Shown here: positions 4,941 to 43,219 of the stretch, in pieces
Numbering within the stretch: the stretch's first letter is position 1
How the letters are laid out: each line of letters starts with the position of its first letter
Source: Dehalococcoidia bacterium
Lineage (GTDB): Bacteria > Chloroflexota > Dehalococcoidia > GIF9 > UBA5629
Assembly: GCA_041653995.1 (NCBI GenBank)
Contig: JBAZEK010000001.1
Coordinates: forward strand, 1,030,613-1,094,612
Direction of reading: 5' to 3'
DNA length: 64,000 bases
Notes under the pieces: generated by a model
Databases searched by the model: none
What the model saw: only the letters and a program-made list of their open reading frames with translations
What the model was told of the DNA's origin: nothing
Made by a program: the position numbers and the translations under genes

Positions 4941-5137
4941 ACAAATGCAATAAGGTCGTAGCCGGGTTGCGACTTGGACTACTTTACGATACGGCCTAAC
5001 AACTCTATACCGTTCGCAATATGAGTGTACATGCATAATAAAGTCAGCTTTAAATTCTGACACGCCGGCTTGACTGTGCCTTAATTTTCCCTTAATATTT
5101 CGCTCAACCATGACGTGAGGTTTAGGAGGATTGAAAT

Positions 5138-23361: not shown

Positions 23362-23502
23362 AACGATTCAATTTAATTAATAAGCCGGAGTATGTCAACA
23401 GACAGCAGTCCGAATAAAGACGGTACACAACCGGTAATACACTTGACAGAATGTATAGTATGCTTTACAATTAGTATAATAAACTATATAGGAGACGTTG
23501 TA

Positions 23503-23883
23503 ATGCAAGTAAGCAGATTCCGAGTCTACAGGGCGATTATAGCCGCCGGGCTGGCCGTTGCCGTGGCGATTGCGATCGCCACCGATATCCCCTTAATCGC
23601 GCTGGTCGCGGTTGTCGTTGCTATCGCGCTTGCCATAGTTCTGGAACGCCGCAACAAAGAGATCGTGCGGGATGAGCGGATCCAGCAGATCGGCGGGAGG
23701 GCCGCCACTGCATCTTTCAACAGCGTGATTATACTGGCGGCTGTGGCCGCGCTGGGCGCTGCCCTTTTCCGCAATCAATTGCCTGAAAATATTGTATTCG
23801 TCGGCAACATCATGGGCTATTTCGTCTGCATCGCCATAATACTGCACCTGTGCTTTTACGCATATTTCAGCCGCAAGCTTTAG
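23503..23883 (+). CDS. membrane protein, DUF2178-like (ERR..VRDER motif) partner of XRE regulator
   Basis: ATG 23503 after GGAGA; 3-4 TM helices; LERRNKEIVRDERIQQ cytoplasmic motif; stop 10 nt before HTH gene. Confidence 0.55.
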   Translation: MQVSRFRVYRAIIAAGLAVAVAIAIATDIPLIALVAVVVAIALAIVLERRNKEIVRDERIQQIGGRAATASFNSVIILAAVAALGAALFRNQLPENIVFVGNIMGYFVCIAIILHLCFYAYFSRKL

Positions 23884-23892
23884 GGTGTAAAT

Positions 23893-24129
23893 ATGAAAAA
23901 CAGGTTAAAGGTATTCCGGGCCATGCACGACCTCACACAGGAGGCGCTGGCCGATCGATTGCGCGTGACCAGGCAGACGGTCATATCCATCGAAAACGGC
24001 AAATACGACCCTTCCCTGCCGCTTGCCTTCCGTATCGCCAATCTTTTTAACGTGAAAATCGAGGACGTCTTCTTCTACGAAGGTGGTCCGGGTGAGTTCC
24101 ACGGCTATCCACCCAGGTCTGAAAAATGA
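23893..24129 (+). CDS. XRE-family helix-turn-helix transcriptional regulator
   Basis: 78 aa; LTQEALADRLRVTRQTVISIENGK; paralog of 3099..3302. Confidence 0.8.
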   Translation: MKNRLKVFRAMHDLTQEALADRLRVTRQTVISIENGKYDPSLPLAFRIANLFNVKIEDVFFYEGGPGEFHGYPPRSEK

Positions 24130-24148
24130 AGCCGCCGCAAAGAAGCAG

Positions 24149-24538
24149 TCATGCCTTCCCAAAAGCGCCCTGGAGTATCAGTAGAGCCGAAATTGTAAAA
24201 ATAACCGGACAAAGTCTATATGGAATAAAATCGATTTGGGCGCCTGTAAACAGCGACAGCACTGCCATCGCTATCAGCATGACCGCTGCTGATACAAACA
24301 CAACTTTCCGTGATTTCAGATTACTGTAGTTGAGTGCTGCAACGAGAATTACCAACCCTCCCAGGAATAAGAGCGTCAGGCCTTCATTTATCCATTCCAT
24401 CAAAACTATTCTTGTATTGTCGACTGAAATGGCGCCGAATCCATCGACAACCGAATCAGTGGGAATCAAGTGAGCAATACCCCATAAGATACACAGTGCG
24501 CCACCGATTATAACCAATACTTTCCTGGCCATCTTCAC
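24149..24538 (-). CDS. small 4-TM membrane protein
   Basis: 129 aa, hydrophobic throughout; convergent with HTH gene. Confidence 0.45.
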   Translation of the reverse strand: MKMARKVLVIIGGALCILWGIAHLIPTDSVVDGFGAISVDNTRIVLMEWINEGLTLLFLGGLVILVAALNYSNLKSRKVVFVSAAVMLIAMAVLSLFTGAQIDFIPYRLCPVIFTISALLILQGAFGKA

Positions 24539-24629
24539 ACTCCTTCAATTTGTTACCGCACCATCCAGTTCAGGCAGCTGCCCAATCAATTACAATAGTA
24601 TCCCATCCGACCTCCCATAGTCATCACGC

Positions 24630-24666
24630 CATTTTCATTTCAGTAATCTCACGACTGTTTCTTAAA
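24630..24666 (+). repeat. direct repeat (upstream copy) flanking RHH–MazF cassette
   Basis: CATTTTCATTTCAGTAATCTCACGACTGTTTCTTAAA; core 24 bp 23/24 identical to 25312..25335. Confidence 0.6.
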
Positions 24667-24701
24667 TATGGTATGATAATATGTAATACCAGGAGGTCAT
24701 A

Positions 24702-24944
24702 ATGGGCAAGGAAAAGATAGCGATCACTATTGATGGGCAGCTTGTCAGCGAACTTGACGGGCTGGTGGGTAAAAACGTCTTTCAGAGCCGCAGCCAGGCT
24801 ATTCAGGAAGCTGTCCATGAAAAACTTATGCGAATCAGAAAGACCCGCCTGGCGGAAGAGTGCGCCAAACTTAATCCTTCATTTGAAAGAGCCCTCTCCG
24901 AGGACGGATTTGAAGGGGATATTAAACAGTGGCCGGAATACTGA
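24702..24944 (+). CDS. ribbon-helix-helix (CopG-family) antitoxin
   Basis: 80 aa; AGGAGG RBS; KIAITIDGQLVSELDGLV...SRSQAIQEAV RHH pattern; overlaps toxin by 16 nt. Confidence 0.65.
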   Translation: MGKEKIAITIDGQLVSELDGLVGKNVFQSRSQAIQEAVHEKLMRIRKTRLAEECAKLNPSFERALSEDGFEGDIKQWPEY

Positions 24945-25264
24945 GGGGAGAGATCCGCTGGGCGGACTTAAGCCCAACTCGGGGACATGAACAAACGGGT
25001 TTGCGCCCCGTGCTCGTTGTCAGTCACGACGTTTTCAATGAACGCTCGGGCACCGCTATTGTAGTCGCAATCACGAGTCAGCTGCAGCAGGCTGGTTTTC
25101 CACTTGTCCTGGAGTTGAAAACGGGAGGCCTTCCCAAGCGTTCATGGGCAAAAATCAGCCAGATCAGGACCGTTTCAACTGAAAGGCTGGGCAATAAAGT
25201 CGGTAGATTATCCCACGAAGAGCTGGCAAAAATCATCGATGGTCTGAACGAAATCGTTGCATAA
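24929..25264 (+). CDS. MazF/PemK-family endoribonuclease toxin
   Basis: 111 aa; RGEIRWADLSPTRGHEQTGLRPVLVVS core. Confidence 0.75.
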   Translation: MAGILRGEIRWADLSPTRGHEQTGLRPVLVVSHDVFNERSGTAIVVAITSQLQQAGFPLVLELKTGGLPKRSWAKISQIRTVSTERLGNKVGRLSHEELAKIIDGLNEIVA

Positions 25265-25298
25265 ATATACGCCGGGCAGCTTCGAGAAAAACATACTG

Positions 25299-25335
25299 CA
25301 TTATTATTTAGGTAATCTCACGACTGCTTCTTAAA
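25299..25335 (+). repeat. direct repeat (downstream copy) flanking RHH–MazF cassette
   Basis: CATTATTATTTAGGTAATCTCACGACTGCTTCTTAAA. Confidence 0.6.
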
Positions 25336-25654
25336 CAGGCATGCAACCTGCATCACCAACCTGCCGGGTTGAATTCACCGGTCACTGGTGATAGTATTTC
25401 CAACATAATACGCATAAAGGAGGACTATTGATGCTTGCCATTTTAATAACTGCGGATATTACATCCCTTGAGGTTTCAGGCTAGATACCATATCATCGTT
25501 TAACCGATAGATTGCCGGTCGTTCCGCAGGGAACGGCTTTTTTGTTCTTCTCCTGATCAGGAAGTAAGGCTTAATTACGCACGGGGTGTGAGTCCGTGGA
25601 TTATTCGACATTGAATAATGTCCTGATTAACTTACTTTCGAAAAGGAGCAAGAA

Positions 25655-26764
25655 TTGAATATAGCTTCAAACCATTCACGAACACCCAACCTCCAGGATA
25701 TAGGGTGGAATTCGTTTTTTCAGAAGAGCTACCGGGCGTTGCAAATCCCGGACACCATGCCTGCCAGAGTCATCACCGAACTCAAGGATGCTTTTCAGGT
25801 TTACACTGAATGCGGGGAATTGACTGCCGCGGTTTCAGGCAGGATGAGACACTTCGCTGAAAGTGAAGAACGATATCCGGCCGTCGGCGACTGGGTTGTC
25901 ATCAAACGGCTGAATAACGAACGGAAAGCGGTAATCCATGCCGTACTGCCGAGAAAGAGCAAATTCTCCAGGAAAGTTGCCGGGGAACGTACCGAAGAGC
26001 AGATTGTCTCGGCTAACATAGACACCGTTTTCATTGTCAGCGCTATGGACGGCGGCAGGAACTTCAATCTCCGGCGGATTGAGCGATATCTCACACTTGC
26101 CTGGAGCAGCGGCGCCACCCCGGTAGTTGTCCTCAATAAAGTCGACCTGTGCACGGATATCGATACGCCCGTTCACGAAGTCGAGACTGTCGCTCCGGGC
26201 ATATCCATTCACCCGGTCAGCGCCCGTGAGAAAATCGGTCTGGATGCGCTCACAGCTTACCTGGGAAGAGGAAAAACGACTGCTTTTCTGGGCTCCTCGG
26301 GCGTGGGCAAATCCGCACTGATCAATGCGCTGCTCGGCGTGGAGAGACAGAAGACGGGAGAGGTCCGGGGAGACGACCGCATGGGCAGGCACACCACGAC
26401 CAGACGCGAACTGATCATCCTTCCCGGCGGCGGCATGGTGATTGATACGCCGGGTATGAGGGAAATCCAGATGTGGGCCGGAGAAGAGGACCTGCAGGCG
26501 GCATTTCAAGATATCGAGATGCTGGCCGGACAATGCCGCTTCAGCGATTGCAGTCACAACACGGAATCCGGCTGCGCCGTAAAAGCAGCAATCGCCAGGG
26601 GCGCTCTTGACCCATCCAGGCTGGAGAGCTTCAGGAAACTGCAGAGGGAAATAGATTACCTTGCATACAGGGAAGAGCATGGTACACGCCTGTACGAAAA
26701 GCTCAGATGGAAGAAAGTAGCTAAGCTGGTGAAAGAAATAAAGCATAATCCCAAGAATCGTTAA
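25655..26764 (+). CDS. rsgA: ribosome small-subunit-dependent GTPase A (circularly permuted GTPase)
   Basis: 369 aa, TTG start after AAGGAG; G4-G1-G3 order (VVLNKVDL ... GSSGVGKSALINAL ... DTPG), C-terminal zinc finger CRFSDCSHNTESGCAV. Confidence 0.9.
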   Translation: MNIASNHSRTPNLQDIGWNSFFQKSYRALQIPDTMPARVITELKDAFQVYTECGELTAAVSGRMRHFAESEERYPAVGDWVVIKRLNNERKAVIHAVLPRKSKFSRKVAGERTEEQIVSANIDTVFIVSAMDGGRNFNLRRIERYLTLAWSSGATPVVVLNKVDLCTDIDTPVHEVETVAPGISIHPVSAREKIGLDALTAYLGRGKTTAFLGSSGVGKSALINALLGVERQKTGEVRGDDRMGRHTTTRRELIILPGGGMVIDTPGMREIQMWAGEEDLQAAFQDIEMLAGQCRFSDCSHNTESGCAVKAAIARGALDPSRLESFRKLQREIDYLAYREEHGTRLYEKLRWKKVAKLVKEIKHNPKNR

Positions 26765-31038: not shown

Positions 31039-31275
31039 TTACATGATGTAGGGCGTGCGGCAGCATTTAAGTGCAACACGATGAGAACATATGGTGGGCG
31101 ATACTGGATTTGAACCAGTGACCCCCTGTGTGTAAGACAGGTAAAAACCTTTAATTGACTGGAGCTTATTGATAATCTCTAGGGAAGCCTTACGTTGTCC
31201 TGAAAGAATCATGCTCAAATAGCTTTTACTGATACCTAATTCTTTGGCTAATTGACTCTGTGTTAACTTTTTCAT
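31039..31275 (-). CDS. XRE-family HTH protein whose C-terminal codons read through the tRNA-derived att repeat
   Basis: LTQSQLAKELGISKSYLSMILSGQRK HTH; last ~20 codons (GVTGSNPVSPTI) overlie the 51-bp tRNA-Val fragment. Confidence 0.55.
   Translation of the reverse strand: MKKLTQSQLAKELGISKSYLSMILSGQRKASLEIINKLQSIKGFYLSYTQGVTGSNPVSPTICSHRVALKCCRTPYIM
31092..31142. repeat. att-site direct repeat: 51-bp copy of tRNA-Val(TAC) 3' end
   Basis: TGGTGGGCGATACTGGATTTGAACCAGTGACCCCCTGTGTGTAAGACAGGT identical to 43144..43194. Confidence 0.85.
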
Positions 31276-31530
31276 TTATTTCACCCGCCTTTTTATATCC
31301 TTTAAGCCTGCGTTTCCAATTATCGGTAAATATTGGTACGACTTCTTCTGTCTTCCTTTTGCACTAAAGTTCCCCTGTGGTTTTCTCACAAAATGACAGT
31401 CTACCTCATCAATAAGCCATCTCCGTCCAATGTAGAGTGCATTAATCCGTCCCTCTGACAAAAGCTTACGAACCCGTCTCTCAGATATACCAAGCCTTTC
31501 TGCTGCCTGTGGAACCGTAAGTAGTTTCAT
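31276..31530 (-). CDS. excisionase-family (HTH_17/MerR-like) DNA-binding protein
   Basis: 84 aa; LLTVPQAAERLGISERRVRKLLSEGRINALYIGRRWLI matches excisionase/Xis HTH pattern; adjacent to attL. Confidence 0.6.
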   Translation of the reverse strand: MKLLTVPQAAERLGISERRVRKLLSEGRINALYIGRRWLIDEVDCHFVRKPQGNFSAKGRQKKSYQYLPIIGNAGLKDIKRRVK

Positions 31531-31823
31531 TCAATTACCTTCTATCATTTTAATATTATACCGTTATCGGAATAATGTCAAGTATAATTACAAGCTAAAA
31601 TATCTTTTCTTTTTGCCGCATTTTTCCATAATACTCCGCAGAATTTTTTCAAATCGTATTTAAATTAAGTTTTAAAAGTTCAAGAATGAGGGTTTATAAT
31701 ATGCATATAAACTGGAAGCATATGGAAGGAAGCACGATAGAAAGTTAGAACGTAAGCAAGCGAGTAAGCAAGAAGGAAAGCAGGCGAGCAGGGAAGCTAT
31801 GTTGCTTTCCTTTTTTTAATTTT

Positions 31824-32057
31824 TTGATTCGGAGGTACGAAATGACTGAAAACAAGGTCAAGGAAATTAGATTGAGCAAATGCATGAATCAGAGAGAACT
31901 GGCAGAGAGAGCTCATATCTGTCAAACAGCTATTTCAGACATTGAAAGGGGGGTAAGACTACCATGGAAAGCAGCGTCTGAAAAGCTTGCTATTGCATTG
32001 GGTGTCACAATCGAGGAATTATTCCCAAACAATCTTAGGGGAGGTAAAAATTGCTAA
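31824..32057 (+). CDS. XRE-family HTH regulator
   Basis: 77 aa; MNQRELAERAHICQTAISDIERG. Confidence 0.65.
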   Translation: MIRRYEMTENKVKEIRLSKCMNQRELAERAHICQTAISDIERGVRLPWKAASEKLAIALGVTIEELFPNNLRGGKNC

Positions 32058-32398
32058 ACAAAAATAGAACGTCTTTAAAGCTGGGAAACAAGAAAGTAGG
32101 CTACTTTGAAGGTGATAAATTCATCAAACCCGTAATCGGCTCAAAGCATCTGCTGAAATTTCCTTACCAAGCTTGGGCAATTGATGCCAAAGTATTTGAC
32201 GATGAAATTAAACCTAACGCCAATTATTTTATTGTAAGAGATAGGGAGTCGGGGCTTGAATATAGTTGTACGGTAAAGGACTTCGACAATTTAAAGCGAA
32301 CCATTAACAGAGGGTATGGTAAGCAGTACAGTCTATCTCTAAAACATTGGAAAATAGCAGCTATGGAAGACGCTGAAGCTTCCAGTAACGCAACATAG
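32051..32398 (+). CDS. hypothetical protein
   Basis: 115 aa ORF on island, AT-rich codon usage consistent with neighbours. Confidence 0.4.
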   Translation: MLNKNRTSLKLGNKKVGYFEGDKFIKPVIGSKHLLKFPYQAWAIDAKVFDDEIKPNANYFIVRDRESGLEYSCTVKDFDNLKRTINRGYGKQYSLSLKHWKIAAMEDAEASSNAT

Positions 32399-32579
32399 AG
32401 TAGTGCAGCACCCGTTTTAGTAGTTGGAGGTGCTGTGTAAAAATGGTATTAGACAGAAGGAAAAGGCTGATGGAGGAGGGTATGACTCGCCATGATATTT
32501 CAGGAGCCTACTTATTTAATCAATTCAAGTGAGTTGTAATAGATGGTCATACCTATTCGATGGTCTTAAGGAGGAAAAT

Positions 32580-33026
32580 ATGATTCAGGGCATAGAAAAT
32601 TATATAAATTTAACAGATACCAAGAATGAATGGGCAAAATTTCTAAATGGCTTTGAATGGCATTGGTTCTTTACTCTCACATTTGATAAAAAGGTAAGTG
32701 ATGACTTGGCATACAAGCAATTCTTTAGGTGGAAGAATTGGATAAAGAGTTCAGTAGGACACAGAATTTTCTATCTAATTATTCCTGAGCGTCCCAAGTA
32801 TAAGGGAGATAATACTCATATTCATGGATTTCTTAATGGTGTTGAAAATGAGAAACCCTACATATGGAGAAGGAAATGGGAGGCAATGGCAGGCTTTTCT
32901 CGGATTCAACCCTATGATAGTTCAAGGGGTGCAAGCTATTATCTAGCGGATAAAATTGTATTTAAAGAAGAGGATATTTATCATAGCAAAGACCTAAATA
33001 TGATAAAGATAAATACACTCAATTAA
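32580..33026 (+). CDS. putative rolling-circle replication initiator (HUH endonuclease, Rep-like)
   Basis: ATG 32580 after AAGGAGG; motif I FFTLTF, motif II (HUH) THIHGFL, candidate motif III Y-x-x-K in ASYYLADKIVFK. Confidence 0.5.
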   Translation: MIQGIENYINLTDTKNEWAKFLNGFEWHWFFTLTFDKKVSDDLAYKQFFRWKNWIKSSVGHRIFYLIIPERPKYKGDNTHIHGFLNGVENEKPYIWRRKWEAMAGFSRIQPYDSSRGASYYLADKIVFKEEDIYHSKDLNMIKINTLN

Positions 33027-33094
33027 ATCCATTATATATATCAATATGATTATTACTACAAACATCAATATTTATTTCTTTTACTTTTACTTTT

Positions 33095-33150
33095 CCTTAT
33101 GCCCCTTTTTTATTTTTGCCCCAAATATGAATTAAATATAAATATCTACA
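33095..33150. repeat. iteron-like repeat cluster downstream of rep (GCCCCTTTTTTATTTTTGCCCC ... AAATATAAATATCTACAA)
   Basis: GGGGCAAAAA(T/G)A(A/G)AAAAAGGGG-type motif recurs inverted at ~40250..40275; AAATATAAATATCTACAA recurs at 34199..34216. Confidence 0.45.
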
Positions 33151-33231
33151 ATTAATTGCATAAAATTGGGGCATAGGGAAAAAATCACATATAAAATTCA
33201 AATAGAAAGTCAGGAGGAATCAGTAAGTAAA

Positions 33232-33858
33232 ATGAGTACAATAATTTCAAAACCTACGACAATTCAAATTAGCATGCTTGGGACACATGCCTTTTGTGAA
33301 TATAGGATATATCTTGAGCTTGTTATGGGTTTTAAAGCACGAGGTACACCAGAAATGCTTGAAGGCACAAAAGCACACTCAAGGATAAATACGATGGCTT
33401 TCTTAACGAGAGATTCAAATATTAGCATTGAGGATGCGTTGCTCCAAGCAGAGTCAGACGGAAGAGAAATAACAAAAAGGAACGTACGGGTAACAGGTAA
33501 GATACTACGTGGGAATATCGATGAAATTCACATTGGGCCAAAAGAAATTACGATTATAGATGATAAAAAATGGGCAGAGCATTATCCATCATATAAAAAT
33601 CAAGTCTTTGGCTATTGCCTTGCGTTTAAAGAACAATACAACCCAAAGCAGCCGATATACGGTGCCATAAAGAATTATCAGTCTGGAAAGGAAGTCTGGA
33701 AAAAACAATTTTCAGTTTTGGAAGAGGAATATATAAACGGCATTGTTCAAAGAATACTGGGGATAATTCGTGAGGATATCACTCCAAAACCCATTGGTGT
33801 TAGAGAAGTATGCTGGCAATGTGGATTTAAAAATTACTGCAATGTAAGGACACGATAG
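33232..33858 (+). CDS. Cas4-like/DUF83 PD-(D/E)xK nuclease with 4-Cys Fe-S site
   Basis: ATG 33232 after AGGAGG; N-terminal Cys (HAFCEY), IDEI...IIDDKK (D/ExK), QVFGY (QhxxY), C-terminal CWQCGFKNYC (CxxCx5C). Confidence 0.6.
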   Translation: MSTIISKPTTIQISMLGTHAFCEYRIYLELVMGFKARGTPEMLEGTKAHSRINTMAFLTRDSNISIEDALLQAESDGREITKRNVRVTGKILRGNIDEIHIGPKEITIIDDKKWAEHYPSYKNQVFGYCLAFKEQYNPKQPIYGAIKNYQSGKEVWKKQFSVLEEEYINGIVQRILGIIREDITPKPIGVREVCWQCGFKNYCNVRTR

Positions 33859-33895
33859 CAAAATGGTGGAAAAAGGAAAAAGAAGAAACTAACTA

Positions 33896-34159
33896 CTATA
33901 CTGCCTTGAAACCCACAATAAAGTAATTTGATTTATCAAATATAAGTCTTATCTTGTGTTCTGAATTATCCTTGCCGGCCAGGGCAATTAAGAATGATAG
34001 CTTCTTTGGATTAGTAACTGTCTTAGAAATTGGACGATGGACAATAAAACCCTCAAGTTCAATCTTCACATATCTACAGCCAGTCTTCGGATATGGCAAA
34101 TCCTTCTCTTCCACAATATCTATATATTTGCATATGGCTGAATTTGTCCTTCTTGGCAT
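33896..34159 (-). CDS. hypothetical protein
   Basis: 87 aa ORF on island; no motifs. Confidence 0.3.
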   Translation of the reverse strand: MPRRTNSAICKYIDIVEEKDLPYPKTGCRYVKIELEGFIVHRPISKTVTNPKKLSFLIALAGKDNSEHKIRLIFDKSNYFIVGFKAV

Positions 34160-34526
34160 ATTTATTTCCTTTCTTCCCTTTTCCGCTAAATTTAAACTAA
34201 ATATAAATATCTACAAATTATTATATTAAATCCACAACCAAATTTGAATATGAATGCCACAGATAAATGGCGGAAAAGAAAAAGAGTCTTAGAGATATTA
34301 TTATTTTGTATTATTTTCTTTAATAGTCAGATAGCAAGTGTGGCTAAGGGCAATTTTACCTTTAAAAATATTGAATCTGGTTGTCATTTGTCTAGTGCTT
34401 TAAAAATAGAAAACCTTCACGTGTGAGAAATGCCAGTAGCACGTGTATTAGAAGCGGCATTTTAAATAAAATCTTAGCCCAAAGTCATAGCAAATATAGA
34501 TTGTTGCATGCGTCCTTTTAATACGA

Positions 34527-34610
34527 TAGAATACGGTCAATGTAGTGAGGCTGGGGAGATGAAATATTTACTTGCTTGTTTCATAGCACTATTCGTTATA
34601 TCAGCCTGTG
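34527..34610 (+). repeat. 84-bp module (5' UTR + RBS + lipoprotein signal peptide MKYLLACFIALFVISAC) duplicated identically at 40435..40518
   Basis: exact identity of ATAGAATACGGTCAATGTAGTGAGGCTGGGGAGATGAAATATTTACTTGCTTGTTTCATAGCACTATTCGTTATATCAGCCTG; weaker similarity extends ~80 bp upstream. Confidence 0.8.
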
Positions 34611-36502
34611 CATCTCAAGTCCATGTTGGTGACCAAGCTCCAAACTTCACACTGACAGATATAAATGGTAAACGTATTAGTCTGCAAGATTTTCGTGGCA
34701 AGCAGGTTGTTCTTTATCTTTGGTTTTTATATTGTCCTGAATGTACAGAAGACCTTGCTGAGATTCAAGAGTTGAATAATAATAGTGACGAAAGAGTCAT
34801 TAAGTTCCTAACCATTAACCCAGAAAATTCATCAAAAGACGTTGCGGATTTTTTCACTAAAAATGGATATAGTTTCCCAGTTTTGTTTGATTTAGATGGA
34901 AGTATTTACAAGCAATATAATTTACGACCTCGGTCTGCACCCTACACAATAATTATTGCTCCTGATGGAAAGATTAACAATATTACAGTGGGGAATCTTC
35001 ATTATCAAGGTGGTTTAAAACGGTTAATTGGAGATAACGTAACATCCTTCAGTCCAAGTGCACAAACTCAAAAGACTCCAATAATTATCGTACCCAGTTT
35101 ACAATCTCATGGTGTCGATGAACTTGCTTATGTATCTAGCGAAACGAACACGAACTCTATATATGTCGTGAATGCAAACGGGGAATATATTGCTAACTCA
35201 TCTGGAAAAATGGATGCATTATACCATGTTAGTTGGTCGCCAAACGGAGATAAGATTATTTTTGAAGTGGTTAAAGATATCAATATAGACCAGAGAAATA
35301 TGACCCTTATTTCTTCGTCTGATATTTATTCTCTTGATATTAAAGACCATGAAGAGCGTAGACTTACTTCAAATTATCCGTATAGCAATTGTTCTCCCAC
35401 ATGGATTGAAGACGATAAAATCGTATTTTATTCAACAAGGGGAAGTTCGTATGGCAGTTTTTTACAAAATATATACATCATGAACGCAGACGGAAGTAAT
35501 CAGATAAATTTAACTAATTGTGCAGAGAATGTACCTATGGTATTAGAACCAATATTATCGCCTGACCACTTGTCTGCAGCATATATTACGGGTAAGTTAT
35601 TCGATGAAGATATATATGTGATAAACCTAGTGAATGGAAATAAATTTGAAATAGGCCATAATCCAACATTTGCACCCTGGACTTGGTGGTCTCCAAACAG
35701 TAAACAGATAGCGTATATATCTGCCTCTCTAAACGGGGGGCCTGAATCATTTTATCTCTACGATGTCGAAAAACAGAAACCGATAAAATACTATGATAGC
35801 CCTCAATCTTATTCTATTATGGAAATAGCATGGTCGCCAGACAGTAACAAAGTCGCTATTTTTGAAAAACCGCAGAGCTTGTATGTTTTAGATTGTCTGA
35901 GTTCCAAGTTTACAAAACTTGATGGGATATGTGACTGGGTAGTAGAGATGAAATGGATACCTAATAACCAACAAATAGCCATTATTGGTGACAGGTTTAC
36001 AAACAGAAACTTGTATGTAATTGATATTGGTGAGCAGAGTAAGCATAAAATCAATCCAGAGGGAACGGCAGTCGAGTCGTATCGATGGTCAACTGATAAT
36101 ACAAGAATCATTTATTGCTTAGATGATGGATATCTTTACACAACTTTCCTACCCAACTTAAATACCATAAAACTAATGCAACTTAATAAAAATACGATAA
36201 AAGGGTTAGCTTTGTCACCAGACGGTTTATTAATCGCTGTTGCTCTGAGTGACGATACTCTAACTGTAATTTCATTAAACAATAACAAGGTGTGCTTGTT
36301 AACTAATGATTATTACAATATTGGAGCAATTTCTTGGTCGCAAAACAGTAACATACTTGCATTTGAATACGGAACTTTATGGGATAGTCCGTTTGTATGC
36401 AGTAACATTCAAATCATCAATTTCGAAAACGAGGAACAGTTCATTAAATTAGATAAACCAATCTCAGGACGCTCTCCAATTTGGGCGAGAAAGGAAAAAT
36501 AA
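34559..36502 (+). CDS. exported lipoprotein: TlpA/ResA-like thioredoxin-fold domain (CPEC) + TolB-like beta-propeller
   Basis: lipobox ISAC; APNFTLTDINGKRISLQDFRGKQVVLYLWFLYCPEC redoxin; C-terminal repeated W-S-P-D/N-G/S blades (SWSPNGDKIIF, AWSPDSNKVAIF, RWSTDNTRIIY, ALSPDGLLIAV, SWSQNSNILAF). Confidence 0.75.
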   Translation: MKYLLACFIALFVISACASQVHVGDQAPNFTLTDINGKRISLQDFRGKQVVLYLWFLYCPECTEDLAEIQELNNNSDERVIKFLTINPENSSKDVADFFTKNGYSFPVLFDLDGSIYKQYNLRPRSAPYTIIIAPDGKINNITVGNLHYQGGLKRLIGDNVTSFSPSAQTQKTPIIIVPSLQSHGVDELAYVSSETNTNSIYVVNANGEYIANSSGKMDALYHVSWSPNGDKIIFEVVKDINIDQRNMTLISSSDIYSLDIKDHEERRLTSNYPYSNCSPTWIEDDKIVFYSTRGSSYGSFLQNIYIMNADGSNQINLTNCAENVPMVLEPILSPDHLSAAYITGKLFDEDIYVINLVNGNKFEIGHNPTFAPWTWWSPNSKQIAYISASLNGGPESFYLYDVEKQKPIKYYDSPQSYSIMEIAWSPDSNKVAIFEKPQSLYVLDCLSSKFTKLDGICDWVVEMKWIPNNQQIAIIGDRFTNRNLYVIDIGEQSKHKINPEGTAVESYRWSTDNTRIIYCLDDGYLYTTFLPNLNTIKLMQLNKNTIKGLALSPDGLLIAVALSDDTLTVISLNNNKVCLLTNDYYNIGAISWSQNSNILAFEYGTLWDSPFVCSNIQIINFENEEQFIKLDKPISGRSPIWARKEK

Positions 36503-36527
36503 GAAATTTCAAAAATGGAGACTGAAT

Positions 36528-36824
36528 ATGACTGGCGAATTGGGAAATTTTGTTATCGTCATGGGATTACCCTGTTTAGGAGCGCTGTTAATAGCTTTTT
36601 GTTCATTACCAACCGATAAATGGACAATAAAACACACTTTTATGTTGGTGGGAACTTCACTAATTTTTATTAGCTTTATTTTGCAAGCATATCAGATTAT
36701 TGATAAATACCCTGATAAAAATGAATATATATTTGGATGGTGGATTGTCGGTTTAGCTACCGTTATCATGGCTATAATAGGGCAAATTATTAGAATCAGA
36801 TACGGTAAAAGTTGGTTCCAATAG
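36528..36824 (+). CDS. small 3-TM membrane protein
   Basis: 98 aa hydrophobic ORF directly after lipoprotein gene. Confidence 0.4.
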   Translation: MTGELGNFVIVMGLPCLGALLIAFCSLPTDKWTIKHTFMLVGTSLIFISFILQAYQIIDKYPDKNEYIFGWWIVGLATVIMAIIGQIIRIRYGKSWFQ

Positions 36825-36920
36825 GATAATAAAATAGTGGGAAAGGAAAGAGAAGGAAATTTAATTAGCTATCTATATTTAAGATAAGAGTGACTTATAG
36901 AACTTCATTGAGGTTGGGAG

Positions 36921-37451
36921 ATGCAACAACAGTATCAATGCCCTAATTGTAGGTATCCAGTTGCTTATGGGAATAATTTCTGTGGACATTGTAGACAACA
37001 ACTAATCTGGCAACAATTAATGCCACCTTCACCACCAGTACACCATCAGCAAACACCACAAGGCATTATTGGGAAATCACACGAGCAAAACACTTCTGGA
37101 CAAGGTGGTCAATCAATAATACCCGATGAAAAGCGTATTAAACTTCCAAAACTCAATATTCGTTTCGACTTTGAGTTGTTTCAAGCAATTGAGGACAATG
37201 ACCGTAAACTGGCTGAACAGCTCAAAGCAAAATATGGGGATGATGTTTATAATTCCAATTTTTATAACCTGCTTAGTATCGAAGACGCTAACTCAGTAGA
37301 CTCACTTCATCTTAAACTAGTATCAGTTGAAAAAATGAATTTCAATGATATTTTATGCGAAAGTATCAAAATAGAGACTGAAAAAGTACGCAAAAGGATA
37401 GAGGAGCTTGAGAATATAAAAAATTTACGCAACGGGATTGAGGAAGTGTAA
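36921..37451 (+). CDS. zinc-ribbon (MQQQYQCPNC...CGHC) + coiled-coil protein
   Basis: 176 aa; N-terminal CPNC-x11-CGHC; member of the window-wide MQQxYxCPxC family. Confidence 0.55.
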   Translation: MQQQYQCPNCRYPVAYGNNFCGHCRQQLIWQQLMPPSPPVHHQQTPQGIIGKSHEQNTSGQGGQSIIPDEKRIKLPKLNIRFDFELFQAIEDNDRKLAEQLKAKYGDDVYNSNFYNLLSIEDANSVDSLHLKLVSVEKMNFNDILCESIKIETEKVRKRIEELENIKNLRNGIEEV

Positions 37452-37461
37452 GGAACTGACT

Positions 37462-37505
37462 AAACCCCTGAAACTGGCAGCTCGAGTAAGAAAAATGGCG
37501 GGAAA
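37462..37505 (+). repeat. ~44-bp intergenic repeat (AACCCCTGAAACTGGCAGCTCGAGTAAGAAAAATGGCGG), second copy 39411..39455
   Basis: ~90% identity; each sits between a stop codon and next start; in second copy ATGGCGG is the start of the HEPN-like gene. Confidence 0.6.
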
Positions 37506-37511
37506 GAAAAT

Positions 37512-39368
37512 TTGATTTATATGTTATGGGATGATACGTATCGTAAAGATGCAGCGGAGTATGAAATCTATCTGCGTATGCATCATAAAGAAAAAAACGA
37601 TTACGAGAAGCTTTTATCTAATCTTGAACGTGAGTGGTCAGAAAAATCAGTTAAAGAAGAAAACTACATATCGCTTAAAAAGGAATACACAGCGAAACTA
37701 CAGGAAACAAAGAAGTACATTTCAAAGCTGAAATTCCAGATTACAGCACTCATTAAAAAATGTAATAAAGACATAGATAAAATCGATAGCCAAATTGAAC
37801 AAATTAAATTGCGGCACAAAGTTGGTGAATATTCAGAGGAGAAACTCAAAGAACTATTATCACCATCTGAAACAGAAAGAAGGCAATTTGAATCCTTAAT
37901 AATCGAACTGAAACGCATACATGGCTTGAAATATATACCTAAACCAACTACCGATGATGTTGTATCAGAAACAGAACCGAGTCAGCCTAGAAGGTCTCCT
38001 ATCCCAACGTCATCTACTTCTATTTCAACAGCTGAAGAGCAAGCCCCCGAAATATCAGCACCAATGAGTTTTGAAGAACCGCCTCCTATTTTGGTACCTG
38101 CTGTATTTAAAAAGTCTTCACCTGTAAGAGTAAAGAAGAGTCTGTGGATTATGGCTTCGATTACTATGTTTGTAATATTAATTCTCTGTTTTGTTATTTG
38201 GAATATAGAAGTGCATAAAAAGGTAATCCCTCAGATTGGAGACCAAGCTCCAAACTTCTCTCTCCCAGATATGAATGGTAAAACGGTTAACCTTCAGGAC
38301 TTTCACGGAAAGGGTGTTGTTCTTTACCTTTGGGACACATCATGTCCTTACTGCAAAAATGACCTTAGCTGGATAAATGAATTAAATGGCTGCACCTATG
38401 ACGAAGCAATAATATTTTTAACTATTAATATCTCAGATTCACGTGGAACAGCTATTAAATATTTTGAGGAAAATGGATATAGTATTCCCGTTTTAAATGA
38501 TATGCGTGGGACGGTTATTAAGCAGTATGTAAAGTACACCTTAGGCCATACGTATCCAGATACTATTCTTATTGGTTCAAATGGCCAGATTCGTAATGTA
38601 AAAGTCGGGCCCTTCCAAAGCAAGACTGAATTAAAAACATTTATAGAATCAGGTTTAACCCCCCGTTGGGATAATACTCCTCCACAAATTTATGATATTA
38701 ATCTTTCTAAGGCCTCTATTTTGAGTTGGAAAACGGATGAGGAAACACATAGTAATATACAAGGGTTTCGTAATAGTGTCGGAGGTGCTGGAGTCACTCT
38801 TGGTGAAAATTGGACAAGATATCATAGCGTAAATGAAACAGTTTGCACTAATGGCTACTATGACCAAATTCAAATCAACTCGTATGACCGCTGCGGTAAT
38901 TCTGCTTCAAAAGTTTTTACACTGCCCAACTGCATAAATTTAGGTTGTAGAGCTCCTGATTTCACAGCAACTTCAACTAATAATCAGGATATAACGCTGT
39001 CCGCAGTACCTAGCAAAATGACTCTACTTCACTTCTGGCTACTCGGATGTGGTGCATGTGAAAAGGAACTTCCATTAATCCAAAAACTATATTATGAGCG
39101 TCCTAGAGAAGAACTTGAGATATTGGCTGTGAATGTTAGAGGTGACATATACAGCATAAATGACTTCGTTACTGCAAATGGTTATAGATTAATTATTTTA
39201 CTAGATACAGAAGGCATAATAGATGCCGCCTATCATAATCCAAGGTTCCCCACAACCTTTTTATTGGATTGCAATAAGGTAATTATTAACAAGCATGACG
39301 GTGCCTTTCAAAATTATGAAGAAATCGTTGATTTTGTAGGTCAGTATCCAAAACTTCCTGGTAAATAG
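37512..39368 (+). CDS. bitopic protein: cytoplasmic coiled-coil, one TM helix, two periplasmic TlpA-like thioredoxin-fold domains (CPYC, CGAC)
   Basis: 618 aa; TM SLWIMASITMFVILILCFVIW; APNFSLPDMNGKTVNLQDFHGKGVVLYLWDTSCPYC; second redoxin LLHFWLLGCGACEKEL. Confidence 0.7.
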   Translation: MIYMLWDDTYRKDAAEYEIYLRMHHKEKNDYEKLLSNLEREWSEKSVKEENYISLKKEYTAKLQETKKYISKLKFQITALIKKCNKDIDKIDSQIEQIKLRHKVGEYSEEKLKELLSPSETERRQFESLIIELKRIHGLKYIPKPTTDDVVSETEPSQPRRSPIPTSSTSISTAEEQAPEISAPMSFEEPPPILVPAVFKKSSPVRVKKSLWIMASITMFVILILCFVIWNIEVHKKVIPQIGDQAPNFSLPDMNGKTVNLQDFHGKGVVLYLWDTSCPYCKNDLSWINELNGCTYDEAIIFLTINISDSRGTAIKYFEENGYSIPVLNDMRGTVIKQYVKYTLGHTYPDTILIGSNGQIRNVKVGPFQSKTELKTFIESGLTPRWDNTPPQIYDINLSKASILSWKTDEETHSNIQGFRNSVGGAGVTLGENWTRYHSVNETVCTNGYYDQIQINSYDRCGNSASKVFTLPNCINLGCRAPDFTATSTNNQDITLSAVPSKMTLLHFWLLGCGACEKELPLIQKLYYERPREELEILAVNVRGDIYSINDFVTANGYRLIILLDTEGIIDAAYHNPRFPTTFLLDCNKVIINKHDGAFQNYEEIVDFVGQYPKLPGK

Positions 39369-39410
39369 ATAATTTCTTGATATTAAGAAATCGAGGTGTA
39401 CTGGTCTGAA

Positions 39411-39455
39411 CCCCTGAAACTGGACAGCTTGAGTAAGAAAAATGGCGGAAAAAGA
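39411..39455 (+). repeat. second copy of ~44-bp intergenic repeat
   Basis: AACCCCTGAAACTGGACAGCTTGAGTAAGAAAAATGGCGG. Confidence 0.6.
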
Positions 39456-39951
39456 AATGCAACAGGAGGAGCATCCCCTAAATATGGGGAAGCTACTTGT
39501 GAATTTCCAATCACTTGAGATAGCTCTCCGTCTATTTCTTTATAATGATGAAATTGCCTCTAGAGTTTCATCTCCTCAGGCGGTAAACCTAAATGCTATG
39601 AATGCGGGGGATATAGTAGCTGAAAATGCGTTCACAAACTATGATAGTCTAAGTCAACTCATTGATAAATATAATAACCATCCCAACATCATATCGACAG
39701 GTCTAACCATTGATAAGACTTTAGTGGACATACGTGATGCAATAGCTCATGGAAGAGTCGCTGGAGTCACTCCTTTGCTTGTGCCTCCTTTAAAACTAAT
39801 GAAGTTTGATAAACCAAAGAACAAAAGTGTGAAAGTAACATTTAGCGTTTTATTGACAAGGGAATGGTTCATTCTAGAGATGGCTAAGGTTCAAGATGCA
39901 GTTTTTAAAGTCTTTCAAGCTATCCAAATAATACAGAGTGCTAAGACATAA
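39442..39951 (+). CDS. hypothetical protein with HEPN-like R-x4-H motif
   Basis: 169 aa; IRDAIAHGR contains Rx4H; predicted all-alpha. Confidence 0.4.
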   Translation: MAEKEMQQEEHPLNMGKLLVNFQSLEIALRLFLYNDEIASRVSSPQAVNLNAMNAGDIVAENAFTNYDSLSQLIDKYNNHPNIISTGLTIDKTLVDIRDAIAHGRVAGVTPLLVPPLKLMKFDKPKNKSVKVTFSVLLTREWFILEMAKVQDAVFKVFQAIQIIQSAKT

Positions 39952-40434
39952 GTGGTGCCCTCTGAAATCGCTCTGAGGGGCTGAAATCAGGGTGTTGCAT
40001 ATTGAACATGACGGATTCCACCTGTCATTACTATTCCAGCTTAATTAGAGCCTTTAAAGTATTAAACAGTAAAGGTAATAACTCTACTTCCTTTCCCTTA
40101 AGCCCCTTTATTATTTCTTCGCCTAAGTTTCCGTTCAAGTGAATTATGTCGCTTTTAAGACCAACAAACGCTGGTACACCATAAACACGTTTACGTTCAA
40201 GCCAATTATGTCGTTTTGCATATATTATTTCCAGCTTAAATTAACTACAGAAAAATGGGGCAAAAAGAGAAAAAGGGGAATTATATATCAATTTATTGTC
40301 AATAATCTTTGAAATACTATTACTTCATCTGAGAGAGATGCCAGCAGCTAAGTGTAACGGCATTGAATTTTAAATAACTTCTCAGCCCAAAGTGGTAACG
40401 CATATAGGTCTATTGCATAAGTATTGTTCATATA

Positions 40435-40518
40435 ATAGAATACGGTCAATGTAGTGAGGCTGGGGAGATGAAATATTTACTTGCTTGTTTCATAGCACTA
40501 TTCGTTATATCAGCCTGC
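40435..40518 (+). repeat. second copy of 84-bp 5'UTR+signal-peptide module
   Basis: identical to 34527..34610. Confidence 0.8.
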
Positions 40519-41880
40519 ACACCAAATAACTCAATAAACAACGTTGAGACATTCCCAAAAATCGGAGATAAGATACCGAATATCTCATGGACTACTATCA
40601 ATGGCGAAAAGATTGATTTAAATCAGTTTAAAGGCAGTTGGGTGCTACTATGCTATTGGTGCTCTTGCCCTGTACATAGGAATGACATACTGACTATTCA
40701 TAATGTTTATGATTCATTATATGATAAGAATCTCGATGTCATTGTAATTAATGATACTTATGCTCAGATAGAATTAGAGGCATTTGGAAAACAAAACAAT
40801 GTACCGTTTTATTTAATTGAAGATAATCAAAAAACAATTGATAAACTTGTACCATTTGGCAACAGGCCAATATATCTCTTAATTGATGGGAGTGGGGATT
40901 TACATGCTATCGAAATAGGTACATTTCGCTCTGGCGAAAATAGCGTTAACAATGTAATCAATTTCCTTGATGATGTGATTAAGGTAAGAATCGATAATAT
41001 TACAGTCACTAATATTACTTCAAATAGGGCAACTGTGAGATGGAAAACAGATAAGGCAGTACCGTGTTGGTTGGAAATTCACCCCCAAGGTGACCCAATC
41101 GGAAAGTGCATCGGCAAGACAAATCCAAATACATTTCATGAATTGATATTAAACTGTAATCCCAACACAGCTTACACTTTTAACGTAGCTGCTAGTGGAT
41201 TAGATAATTCTTTAATTAACGATGCAAGCAATCGTAGTAGTGAATTTTCATTTCAAACATTACCAAATTGGGTTACTTCTTTATATGAGGTTGACTCTAC
41301 TAAACCAAAAATATCGAATGTTAAAGTTTCTATAATTACAGATACGAGTGCAGAGTTATATTGGGAAACTGATGTGGAAGCTCAAGTCACCGCTACAATC
41401 TGTAAATATATATCCAGTACTGATGCGCCCTTAAACTCCCAGAAAATTGATTTTATAGAAGACATATATTTTACAAAGAAACATAGCTTTACAATTAGCT
41501 CTCTTGAGCCAAGACGATTATATGACGTTGGTTTAAATGCCAAAGATAGAATGGGAAGGGTTGCCGATTACAGTGTCGAATTTTTAACACAACCTTCAAA
41601 TTATACTCACGGAGCGAAGATATCCAATATATCTTTATATGACATCACGGACAGGAGTGCTAAATTAAAATGGTCAACTGACAAGTCAGTATGGAGTTCA
41701 GCCTGCTATAAATATGAGTGCTCTTCTGGGGACATCAACACTGAGCATTCATATACACTATCCTATGGTCTGGAACCCGATACAGAATACTGGGTGCAAA
41801 TTCTAGCACATGGGGAATCGGTATCTGATGTATTCAACTTCAGAACATTAAAGACAACAGATAAGGTAGATATGAAATGA
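40468..41880 (+). CDS. exported lipoprotein: thioredoxin-fold domain (CYWCSC) + three fibronectin-III/purple-acid-phosphatase-N-like domains
   Basis: 470 aa; same signal peptide as 34559 gene; Fn3-like segments TNITSNRATVRWKTD, VSIITDTSAELYWETD, ISLYDITDRSAKLKWSTD. Confidence 0.7.
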   Translation: MKYLLACFIALFVISACTPNNSINNVETFPKIGDKIPNISWTTINGEKIDLNQFKGSWVLLCYWCSCPVHRNDILTIHNVYDSLYDKNLDVIVINDTYAQIELEAFGKQNNVPFYLIEDNQKTIDKLVPFGNRPIYLLIDGSGDLHAIEIGTFRSGENSVNNVINFLDDVIKVRIDNITVTNITSNRATVRWKTDKAVPCWLEIHPQGDPIGKCIGKTNPNTFHELILNCNPNTAYTFNVAASGLDNSLINDASNRSSEFSFQTLPNWVTSLYEVDSTKPKISNVKVSIITDTSAELYWETDVEAQVTATICKYISSTDAPLNSQKIDFIEDIYFTKKHSFTISSLEPRRLYDVGLNAKDRMGRVADYSVEFLTQPSNYTHGAKISNISLYDITDRSAKLKWSTDKSVWSSACYKYECSSGDINTEHSYTLSYGLEPDTEYWVQILAHGESVSDVFNFRTLKTTDKVDMK

Positions 41881-41907
41881 AAGAAAATCAAAAGGGAGGT
41901 AAAGAAG

Positions 41908-42084
41908 ATGGTAGCAAATAAGAAGAAGTATTATGCAGGGGAATCAGCTAAAGTCTCTGGCAAATACAACGAATGCAGATTGGGCACAGGCAAAACAGGA
42001 GTAACAGCAAATGTCAAGAAGGGGGATACACTCCCACCACATAAAATAGGAGCTCATTGGGAGTTATCAAGAAAATCTAAATAA
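41908..42084 (+). CDS. small basic protein (58 aa), hypothetical
   Basis: strong RBS AAGGGAGG 8 nt upstream; MVANKKKYYAGESAKVSGKYNECRLGTGKTG...; not in ORF track (<60 aa). Confidence 0.35.
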   Translation: MVANKKKYYAGESAKVSGKYNECRLGTGKTGVTANVKKGDTLPPHKIGAHWELSRKSK

Positions 42085-42316
42085 TATAGACATATTTAAG
42101 AAAGTGGTGACTTATAAAACTTCATGCTGTCCTGAAAGCTGAATGACCGAGTATATCTTTGCACCATAATAAAGTTCAGCCAAGGCACCGTTAAAATGTA
42201 CTACAGAATTGTTCTAAAGGGCCAAAATGGGGTATATAATATAGGGCATGACAGATTCTTCCTGCCTGAGCTTTTCAAGCTTAATTATTGAACAAATAAC
42301 TATGAAATCCTGATTG

Positions 42317-43081
42317 CTAACGAGGTAACTGATTTGAGCCGTTCACATCTTTGTAGACTTGAAGAGCATCCTCAAAGGATAAAGATTTTGAATACCTTTC
42401 AACCATAGAAATGCTTTCCCAACCGCCTAGATTTTGCACAATACGAGTGGATAACCCAGACTTAATATTGTGAATACAAAACCCTCTTCTATAGCTATGG
42501 GCGTTGGACTTAATGCCAGTTTCTTTAGACAATCGTTTAAGCATAGTTTTAATGCCAGCTCTTGATATTTCAAAACTATCATGCTCATCAAACCACTTTC
42601 CGATAACACCATTACCAGCTAAAGCCTTACGATACTTGTTACCCTTGCCCAGAATGGTTACTGTACCTTCACCCCAGTCAAAGTCTTTAGCGTGCACATT
42701 AGCACATTCACTCAGCCTTACTCCTGAGTACCATAAGAAACTAATTAATGCTCTATCACGTTCACAATGACAATGATTTATCAGAACTTCTAATTGTTCT
42801 TTTGATACCGCAGGCAATAGCTTCTTTTGAATTTTTGGGCTAGGAACTTTGTCAATAACCTTGTCGTGAATATAGCTATTGCTGTATAGCCATGAAATGA
42901 GAGTTTTGAGAGCTTGATAGAATCTTGCTTTGCCATTATGACAGGTAAGTGATTTTAGATAAGCATTAACTCCATCTGGACTTAGGGGATAACCAATAAA
43001 ATGAGTTAAAGTATATTCGTAAAATTCAATAGTTCGCTTACTACAACCATCGGGGCGAGAAGAAATAAACTTCTCCAACAA
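42317..43081 (-). CDS. tyrosine recombinase/phage-type integrase (compact XerC/D-like)
   Basis: 254 aa; N-terminal SAM-like domain, catalytic R...HSYRRGF...LGGW...Y (R-H-R-Y); adjacent to tRNA-Val target. Confidence 0.85.
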   Translation of the reverse strand: MLEKFISSRPDGCSKRTIEFYEYTLTHFIGYPLSPDGVNAYLKSLTCHNGKARFYQALKTLISWLYSNSYIHDKVIDKVPSPKIQKKLLPAVSKEQLEVLINHCHCERDRALISFLWYSGVRLSECANVHAKDFDWGEGTVTILGKGNKYRKALAGNGVIGKWFDEHDSFEISRAGIKTMLKRLSKETGIKSNAHSYRRGFCIHNIKSGLSTRIVQNLGGWESISMVERYSKSLSFEDALQVYKDVNGSNQLPR

Positions 43082-43143
43082 TTCTTTTGTGAACTTTTTG
43101 TAGCTAACTTGTGAATATTGTGAAATTGAGCTGTAGTTTTCTT

Positions 43144-43219
43144 TGGTGGGCGATACTGGATTTGAACCAGTGACCCCCTGTGTGTAAGACAGGTGCTCTA
43201 ACCGCTGAGCTAATCGCCC
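43144..43219 (-). tRNA. tRNA-Val (anticodon UAC); integration target
   Basis: rc GGGCGATTAGCTCAGCGGTTAGAGCACCTGTCTTACACACAGGGGGTCACTGGTTCAAATCCAGTATCGCCCACCA; encoded CCA. Confidence 0.9.

Follow-up and report, generated by a model that had tools for sequence, protein, structure and literature searches.

Toxin-antitoxin (TA) modules located on chromosomes are horizontally mobile, and to our knowledge the chromosomal entry of a two-gene unit without a recombinase has rarely been documented. For restriction-modification (RM) gene complexes, insertion with long target duplication was reportedly described by Nobusato et al. (2000, Gene 259:99). RM systems lie between long target duplications of variable length (repeats from >30 to about 400 bp) without mobility genes, and the criteria by which they were recognised as insertions were an insert <20 kb, a repeat >30 bp and a relative in which the site is empty (Furuta, Abe & Kobayashi 2010, PMC2853133). 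A life cycle of insertion, amplification via the repeats and release was proposed for them (PMC2853133; summarised in PMC3874152), with DNA double-strand breakage as the common cause of the insertions (PMC2853133). TA genes are also known as cassettes of chromosomal integrons and of attC-site clusters that have no integron-integrase (CALIN), for which secondary-site insertion and the occurrence of integrons in Chloroflexi have been treated (Cury et al. 2016, PMC4889954). Here, a TA pair flanked by 37-bp direct repeats upstream of the rsgA gene was analyzed in a stretch of 64,000 nucleotides from a Dehalococcoidia bacterium (GenBank assembly GCA_041653995.1, contig JBAZEK010000001.1, positions 1,030,613 to 1,094,612 of the forward strand), referred to as the window. 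The arrangement is probably the result of the insertion of a 632-bp promoter-plus-TA unit upstream of the rsgA leader, accompanied by duplication of a resident 37-bp sequence.

Several traits of the RM insertions (PMC2853133) were recovered here: locus-specific direct repeats exceeding 30 bp enclose an addiction module devoid of transposase and integrase, the repeated sequence is single in a related genome, repeat length varies from locus to locus, and a tandem amplified form was found (locus L102; loci other than the window are designated by L and a number). The cargo differs, being a type II TA module with an RNase toxin and not a DNA-cutting enzyme, so that the proposed double-strand breakage cannot come from the module itself. 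Compared with the RM criteria, the empty site of the window is seen on one side only and its repeats have diverged to 86% identity. In the literature searched, no report of flanking direct repeats or long target duplication was found for type II TA modules. The features of the locus, in window coordinates, are the following:

24539-24619, no strand assigned: left flank, upstream region of memb129 (gene of a 129-aa membrane protein); it aligns to the sequence that precedes the L005 orthologue of memb129, with homology ending at ~24619
24630-24666, plus strand: direct repeat copy 1, CATTTTCATTTCAGTAATCTCACGACTGTTTCTTAAA, the presumed extra (duplicated) copy, which matches the lone L107 copy at 30/37 positions
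24667-25298, plus strand: presumed inserted unit of 632 bp with operator/promoter, ribosome-binding site, antitoxin, toxin and tail; absent from L107
24670-24690, plus strand: palindromic operator (putative), GGTATGATAATATGTAATACC, containing the extended -10 TGATAATAT; conserved in the family
24691-24696, plus strand: ribosome-binding site AGGAGG of the antitoxin gene, read from the sequence and kept in the family
24702-24944, plus strand: antitoxin gene, 80 aa, probably ribbon-helix-helix (RHH), with weak profile matches
24929-25264, plus strand: MazF/PemK toxin gene, 111 aa, Pfam PF02452, overlapping the antitoxin gene by 16 nt
25265-25298, plus strand: cassette tail of 34 nt between toxin stop and copy 2, without significant similarity to L107
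25299-25335, plus strand: direct repeat copy 2, CATTATTATTTAGGTAATCTCACGACTGCTTCTTAAA, the presumed resident copy; 31/37 identical to L107:5646-5682
25336-25654, plus strand: right flank with the rsgA leader, which is kept before rsgA in L004, L005, L009, L011, L013, L105, L106 and L107

The repeat search placed the two copies at a start-to-start spacing of 669 nt, with 32 of 37 positions identical (86%) and a longest common run of 15 nt, GTAATCTCACGACTG. The 3' end of copy 1 is located 35 nt before the antitoxin ATG (24702), and copy 2 begins 34 nt past the toxin stop (25264). An earlier note on this DNA, made from the sequence alone, had described such 37-bp repeats around an RHH-MazF pair, and both its coordinates and its spacing were correct, the measured distances being 35, 34 and 669 nt. 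It had also raised the case of the 24-nt core being a widespread promoter or operator motif. With up to 3 mismatches, the core was found at two sites only in the 64 kb, both flanking the TA pair, with 0 matches expected by chance (100 dinucleotide-preserving shuffles), and among the relatives it was found in L107 alone, so that within this sample it is no widespread motif. No third copy appeared in the whole-window repeat search, and 14 related rsgA loci lacked the 37-nt sequence, L107 with its one copy excepted. GTDB genomes and JGI contigs, collections that evidently do not include this genome, gave no 37-mer when scanned for exact patterns, a weak search in which known carriers such as JGI contig L018 were also missed. 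The repeat has no internal symmetry, and folding of either copy or of the span 25262-25372 was no better than that of shuffled sequence (z -0.6 to +0.7). A dispersed repeat or miniature inverted-repeat transposable element (MITE) appeared unlikely from the presence of two copies only in the window. An insertion sequence or MITE-type transposon was discarded, given a direct repeat as long as 37 nt, no inverted repeats at the cassette ends in the repeat search and no transposase open reading frame (ORF) within the cassette.

Support for an insertion came from relatives located via RsgA homology, a comparison that the earlier note had proposed as its check. In L107, a related Dehalococcoidia contig (RsgA 89% identical), the order Rhodanese-STAS-DUF2178-HTH-rsgA (HTH, helix-turn-helix) is kept without memb129 and without the TA pair, and exactly one repeat copy, TCTTATTATTTAAGTAATCTCACGACTATTTCTCAAA, is present at 5646-5682. 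This copy is followed by the same CAGGCATGCAACCTG...GGGTTGAATTC that follows copy 2; homology to the rsgA leader begins at 25296-25301, and window positions 25301-25700 align to L107 5648-6046 with 93% identity over 400 nt. Since the L107 copy runs on into the right flank of copy 2, copy 2 was taken as the resident sequence and copy 1 as the extra one. At 4 positions the two window copies share a nucleotide that differs in L107, a further point in favour of the duplication. In the other relatives, leader homology begins at window position 25346 (L011 and L105, RsgA 91% and 93%, respectively) or at ~25362-25369 (L106, L004, L005, L009 and L013), and nothing like the repeat was found in the region upstream of memb129 in L005. 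Both copies lie ~10 nt inside the two homology breakpoints. Contigs with identical MazF or identical memb129 carried the cassette in all cases, with both repeats wherever the contig reached; those with identical toxin were metagenomic, plus one Dehalococcoidia bacterium metagenome-assembled genome from NCBI. A further contig, L019, is near-identical over the left flank and antitoxin gene, with one substitution, carries many substitutions from the mazF start onward (2279-2659, equivalent to window 24949-25313) and ends inside copy 2. This pattern suggests a mosaic produced by recombination between strains within the cassette.

The toxin matched PF02452 with an E value of 8.6e-32 over 104 of its 111 residues, and had 7973 homologues at E <= 1e-20. 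Its closest solved relative was EndoA/YdcE of B. subtilis (4mdx/1ne8, E 9e-20), within a range of 9e-20 to 4e-9 for the EndoA/MazF entries of the PDB. The antitoxin matched RHH_1 of Pfam below the cut-off (E 0.002; 18.4 bits against 20.5), and other weak matches were to the RHH domain of NikR (E 0.06) and to the Rv0298 antitoxin (E 0.27). In the pair named by the earlier note, the MazF member is thus clear and the RHH signal weak. An 80-aa partner is present beside MazF in the related loci that reach the upstream region, the remaining ones being cut by contig ends. When loci were aligned on the antitoxin start, every one showed GGTATGA-N-TCATACC around a TG-preceded TATAAT-like -10, followed by AGGAGG; the window version is GGTATGA-N7-TAATACC, at the same position as in 64 related cassettes. 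A profile hidden Markov model of the operator, built from 64 distinct upstream regions, had one window match only (24668-24693, E 4e-6). As the TGn-extended -10 lies inside the palindrome, the TA unit needs no -35 of its own. Copy 1 stops 3 nt short of the palindrome, and the insert therefore begins 3 nt before it. The 632-bp segment holds promoter, antitoxin and toxin only, with no mobility gene.

The palindrome would be the binding site of the RHH antitoxin. The earlier note had offered the upstream repeat as a possible autoregulatory operator, an option that fails because the operator found throughout the family is the palindrome to the right of copy 1. As an operator candidate, the 37-nt repeat was discarded: it lies upstream of no other family member, and it is the palindrome that is conserved instead. 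Judging from these features, the module is an ordinary type II TA system, with a probable RHH antitoxin and a MazF endoribonuclease predicted to be autoregulated via the palindromic operator, its binding and toxin activities being likewise predictions. It shares with EndoAI/EndoA (YdcD/YdcE) and MazEF/PemIK the MazF/PemK-fold toxin, the overlapping upstream antitoxin gene and the operator placed over the promoter, and differs from EndoAI/EndoA in the weak assignment of its antitoxin to the RHH type at the sequence level.

The flanks of homologous cassettes were compared in a family sample of 80 metagenomic loci (MazF 69-81% identical) and 4 loci from closer homologues, nearly all with the same pair of 80 and 111 aa. 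The 300 nt upstream of the antitoxin were aligned to the 300 nt downstream of the toxin, with a score threshold of >=15. Direct repeats at or above this score flanked the cassette in 13/63 non-redundant loci, compared to 6/572 equally spaced control pairs from the same loci (1%; Fisher p 4.6e-10). The repeats were locus-specific in sequence, 31-218 bp long, and fell into four classes. Duplicated host sequence, the class to which the 37-bp repeat of the window was assigned, included 218 bp from the 3' terminal part of a cysK-like gene (L034/L037, 209/218 identical), 52 bp with the terminator of an upstream MFS gene (L029), and 47 bp of a promoter region with its -35, in a prophage (L103/L104). 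The cassette of L103/L104 (4774-5336, MazF 82% identical) is situated between portal/capsid genes and the terminase of a prophage or phage. The tandem class was represented by L102:4774-6395, where two cassettes share 98.4% identity and a common sequence of 192 bp (97%) follows either of them, an arrangement that looks like amplification through flanking repeats. An attC-like class, assigned by inspection, comprised GC-rich cassette arrays (L096, L069, L098, L094 and L070); a covariance model made from 14 aligned attC sites directly after the MazF stop (model R2) gave a minus-strand match in L098 only. The last class, in L022, L024 and L026, is formed by a dispersed element of 95 nt that flanks the RHH-MazF cassette in these loci (element X, described below).

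As we infer the events, the unit would have entered just upstream of the resident 37-bp sequence that precedes the rsgA leader, and these 37 bp would have been duplicated, either by staggered breaks that were then filled in or by single-crossover (Campbell-type) integration of a circle that brought the TA unit together with one 37-bp copy. Formally these routes are equivalent, and either would yield the same product. Both copies would now be junction scars, fossils of the insertion and not regulatory sites. Flanking repeats normally promote the loss of an insert. Here, an identity of 86% with a longest identical run of 15 bp would make the repeats poor substrates for homologous excision, and cells that lost the module by recombination between them would be killed or arrested by the stable toxin. 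Since loss of an addiction module poisons the segregants, the repeat-flanked arrangement would persist, unlike for neutral cargo, and this would account for the excess of such arrangements around RM and TA modules. We infer this stabilisation by toxin killing together with the mechanism of insertion.

A number of observations weigh against an insertion with target duplication. The empty site is one-sided: L107 is devoid of memb129, and a junction of left flank and single repeat was not seen. Its state could equally be due to secondary loss via recombination between the repeats. Within the species an empty site was not encountered, since the cassette is present in all 7 contigs with identical memb129. 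With 5 differences between copies 1 and 2, 7 between copy 1 and L107, and 6 between copy 2 and L107, the three versions are nearly equidistant, indicating either an old duplication or the derivation of copy 1 from a diverged donor. Part of the family enrichment is contributed by the attC-like repeats (L096, L069, L098, L094 and L070) and by element X (L022, L024 and L026). Moreover, we know of no established mechanism for such insertions, even for RM systems.

The main rival explanation is a tandem duplication of leader and TA unit that lost its second gene pair and left a leader stub (copy 2), the stub being what L107 keeps. L102, with its two near-identical copies (98.4%) and 192-bp repeats, provides a precedent, and the 26-nt stretch adjoining copy 1 on the right, which holds the operator, resembles the corresponding stretches beside copy 2 and beside the L107 copy beyond the level of shuffled sequence (p about 0.003-0.005). 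However, the operator profile had no match at 25336-25361 or at the L107 site, even at E <= 100, identity falls abruptly from 86% to ~60% at the end of the 37 nt, and the stub has kept 93% identity between window and L107, unlike a sequence in free decay; such a history seems unlikely to us, although it deserves to be kept in mind. Alternatively, the repeats could be regulatory, acting as a second antitoxin operator with DNA looping, or through RNA pairing between the 3' untranslated region (UTR) of the TA transcript (copy 2, sense) and the 5' UTR of memb129 (copy 1, antisense). Copy 1 does occupy the place where other family members have the -35 region, and a minus-strand promoter-like site at 24700-24673 could transcribe it towards memb129. 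Nevertheless, the operator lies elsewhere and is the sole family-conserved upstream element, the repeat sequence occurs in no other family cassette and shows no symmetry within, and L107 keeps it in the absence of both TA pair and memb129, all of which makes a regulatory role highly improbable. A chance similarity of two AT-rich intergenic stretches has nothing in its favour beyond the modest length of the repeat; with no match in 100 shuffles even when 3 mismatches were admitted, a 15-nt identical run within the 32/37, a symmetrical placement about the cassette and an orthologous copy in L107, its probability is negligible.

A different possibility is that a site-specific recombinase supplied in trans uses the repeats as attL/attR-like sites (integron-like attC or other), the cassette being excisable as a circle. 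In support of this, members of this TA family are often genuine integron cassettes. Many have an attC that starts in the stop codon (GCGTAAC ... GTTRRRY), with the TAAC context in 31/78 loci, and the 5' boundary of the integron cassettes falls between G and TTACGC, ~72 nt before the antitoxin start. In the attC alignment, 78% of cells of the R and L helices were paired, compared to 23-43% in slid controls. Model R2 found 33 sites at E <= 0.01 in 22 loci, including sites on which it had not been trained, 32/33 of them on the cassette strand, with multi-cassette arrays in L036, L058, L063, L030, L060 and L066 and integron cassettes also in L055, L080 and others. The window cassette resembles the integron and CALIN TA cassettes in its homologous RHH-MazF pair with a promoter of its own and in its repeated sites, the family forming same-orientation arrays and carrying attC in at least 22 related loci. 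In addition, a tyrosine integrase gene is present in the window (42317-43081). On the other hand, model R2 run with filters off had no match near the cassette (24.5-25.4 kb), its best window match being at 8734 with E 0.23; R''/R' boxes and hairpins were lacking, neither copy nor the span 25262-25372 folded better than shuffled sequence, and the repeat is unique to this spot. An integron attC was discarded for these reasons, and with neither an attC match nor folding the window cassette is not an integron cassette, though its family often is. It further departs from integron cassettes in that its repeat is a duplicated resident sequence before the leader of a housekeeping gene and no array is present. 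The integrase gene (PF00589), the only tyrosine recombinase found among the ORFs scanned from 29.6 to 44 kb, is 17 kb away, and none adjoins the cassette; it belongs to a separate tRNA-Val island with a 48-nt att repeat of its own. As in integrative elements whose attL and attR result from duplicating the 3' terminus of a tRNA gene or a protein gene, direct repeats of the target flank the insert, but the TA unit measures 632 bp, carries no integrase and has an intergenic target, the tRNA-Val island being the classical case in this window. Target duplication and an att site for a trans-acting recombinase are not fully separable, an integron attC is excluded, and we regard att sites as improbable. 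The claim of the earlier note that the TA pair moved in as a discrete cassette, by target duplication or at an att-like site, accordingly gains from the single copy of L107, with target duplication favoured and the att-like option losing its integron form.

The tRNA-Val island is a ~12-kb integrated element (31095-43219). The tyrosine integrase gene (42317-43081, minus strand) lies beside tRNA-Val (43144-43219), of which 48 nt recur as a partial copy at 31095-31142. Among the cargo are a Rep ORF2/G2P-like protein (32529-33026) and a Cas4-like nuclease (33166-33858), along with several AhpC/TSA-domain proteins, and there are AT-rich internal repeats.

To the left of the TA cassette, memb129 (24149-24538) is divergent, on the minus strand, and beyond it lie a DUF2178 plus XRE-HTH pair and a STAS protein. 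To the right, rsgA (25655-26764) is preceded by a leader of ~290 nt, shared by every relative examined (at least 8 genomes), with the following features:

25369-25374 (TTGAAT) and 25392-25397 (TAGTAT), plus strand: rsgA-leader promoter with a 17-nt spacer
25431-25484, plus strand: 17-codon ORF, MLAILITADITSLEVSG, with a strong ribosome-binding site; a stop shortens it in L011
25517-25538, plus strand: terminator-like hairpin; a second hairpin precedes rsgA

No Rfam family matched in 23800-26200 or in 3900-5200, and the leader may be an attenuator or a small RNA. The junction with the leader was also occupied by other inserts. In the two closest relatives, L011 (4999-5691) and L105 (808-1235), a different TA module, composed of an AbrB/MazE-type antitoxin and an 86-aa partner without Pfam match (truncated in L105), is fused to the rsgA leader at the equivalent of window position 25346; its junction is ~10-45 nt from that of the RHH-MazF cassette, so that different TA cassettes occupy the same spot in sister lineages. 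The same interval holds a cupin gene and a tRNA-fragment remnant in L005, and a 5-kb insert in L011. The L005 fragment (~5605-5640) lies just before the rsgA leader and is a perfect match to the 3' end of the window's tRNA-Val gene (GGGCGATACTGGATTTGAACCAG); it is probably what is left of the att site of an integrative element that occupied this hot spot. Given the varied inserts of L011, L105 and L005, the interval from memb129/HTH to the rsgA-leader promoter is a recurrent landing site.

Element X is a conserved sequence of ~95 nt (...TGGTGGGGCATTATGGACAGTTCCCGAACTCCTGTTTGAGAGCAAAAAGCTTATTCC....CTGCAGCAATTGCTCA...) dispersed in Dehalococcoidia loci. With nhmmer it was found in 21 places (E 1e-27 to 1e-9), always on the strand of the genes. 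In the cases where a gene of the same strand could be recognised upstream, the element followed the stop of that gene at 18-50 nt. Arrays of small cassettes are formed with it in L024 (107, 811, 1318 and 2908), L022 (1556, 2268 and 3851), L021 (2642 and 3695) and L028 (3042 and 4070), and it is also present at L004:5343, L005:4905 and L009:2838. In the window it occurs once:

4091-4188, plus strand: element X, single window copy, 170 nt upstream of the second TA pair

A relation of the 37-mer to element X was discarded, as nhmmer found the element at 4091-4188 only and not at the repeat, and the two sequences are unrelated. The variability of element X has a period of three, with position 3 > 1 > 2 (0.34, 0.20 and 0.13, respectively; Kruskal p 2e-4), in the frame GGALWTVPELLFE(S/K)K.LIP.LQQLL followed by a stop; the peptide reads GGALWTVPELLFESKKLIPxLQQLL before the stop, and there is no in-frame start codon. 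Only hypothetical ORFs of 37-73 aa, and no parent protein, were found among 5.8 billion proteins, and neither NCBIfam nor Rfam matched the element, which also lacked a conserved secondary structure.

The second TA pair of the window (4358-4940), also pointed out by the earlier note, proved to consist of a MazE/AbrB-type antitoxin and a PemK toxin. No flanking repeats were found at this pair or at the TA module of L011. A match to the attC model at 4994-5049 (plus strand), 54 nt past its stop, was not significant (9.5 bits, E 3.2). Both TA loci of the window adjoin a DUF2178 membrane protein and XRE-type HTH pair (3099-3919, minus strand, and 23392-24129, plus strand), and in L021 an RHH-MazF cassette is located directly after the orthologous HTH gene.

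The TA pair itself is ordinary, and the pattern is known for other addiction modules; the noteworthy part is the insertion signature and its recurrence in the family, with junctions preserved at this locus next to a one-sided empty site, and the signature present in about one fifth of the 63 related cassettes. Long target duplication at a module with an RNase toxin would point to a property common to addiction modules rather than to DNA breakage, candidates being selection against repeat-mediated loss and a shared route via circular intermediates. As a tentative generalisation, to which we give a low probability, RHH-MazF modules, and perhaps all addiction modules, could spread independently of recombinases as minimal promoter-plus-TA units with long target duplication, held in place by toxin killing, and Dehalococcoidia could harbour cassette arrays of a non-attC type joined by element X. 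If this were true, the 'virus-like life cycle' of insertion, amplification and release proposed for RM systems would extend to modules that do not cut DNA.

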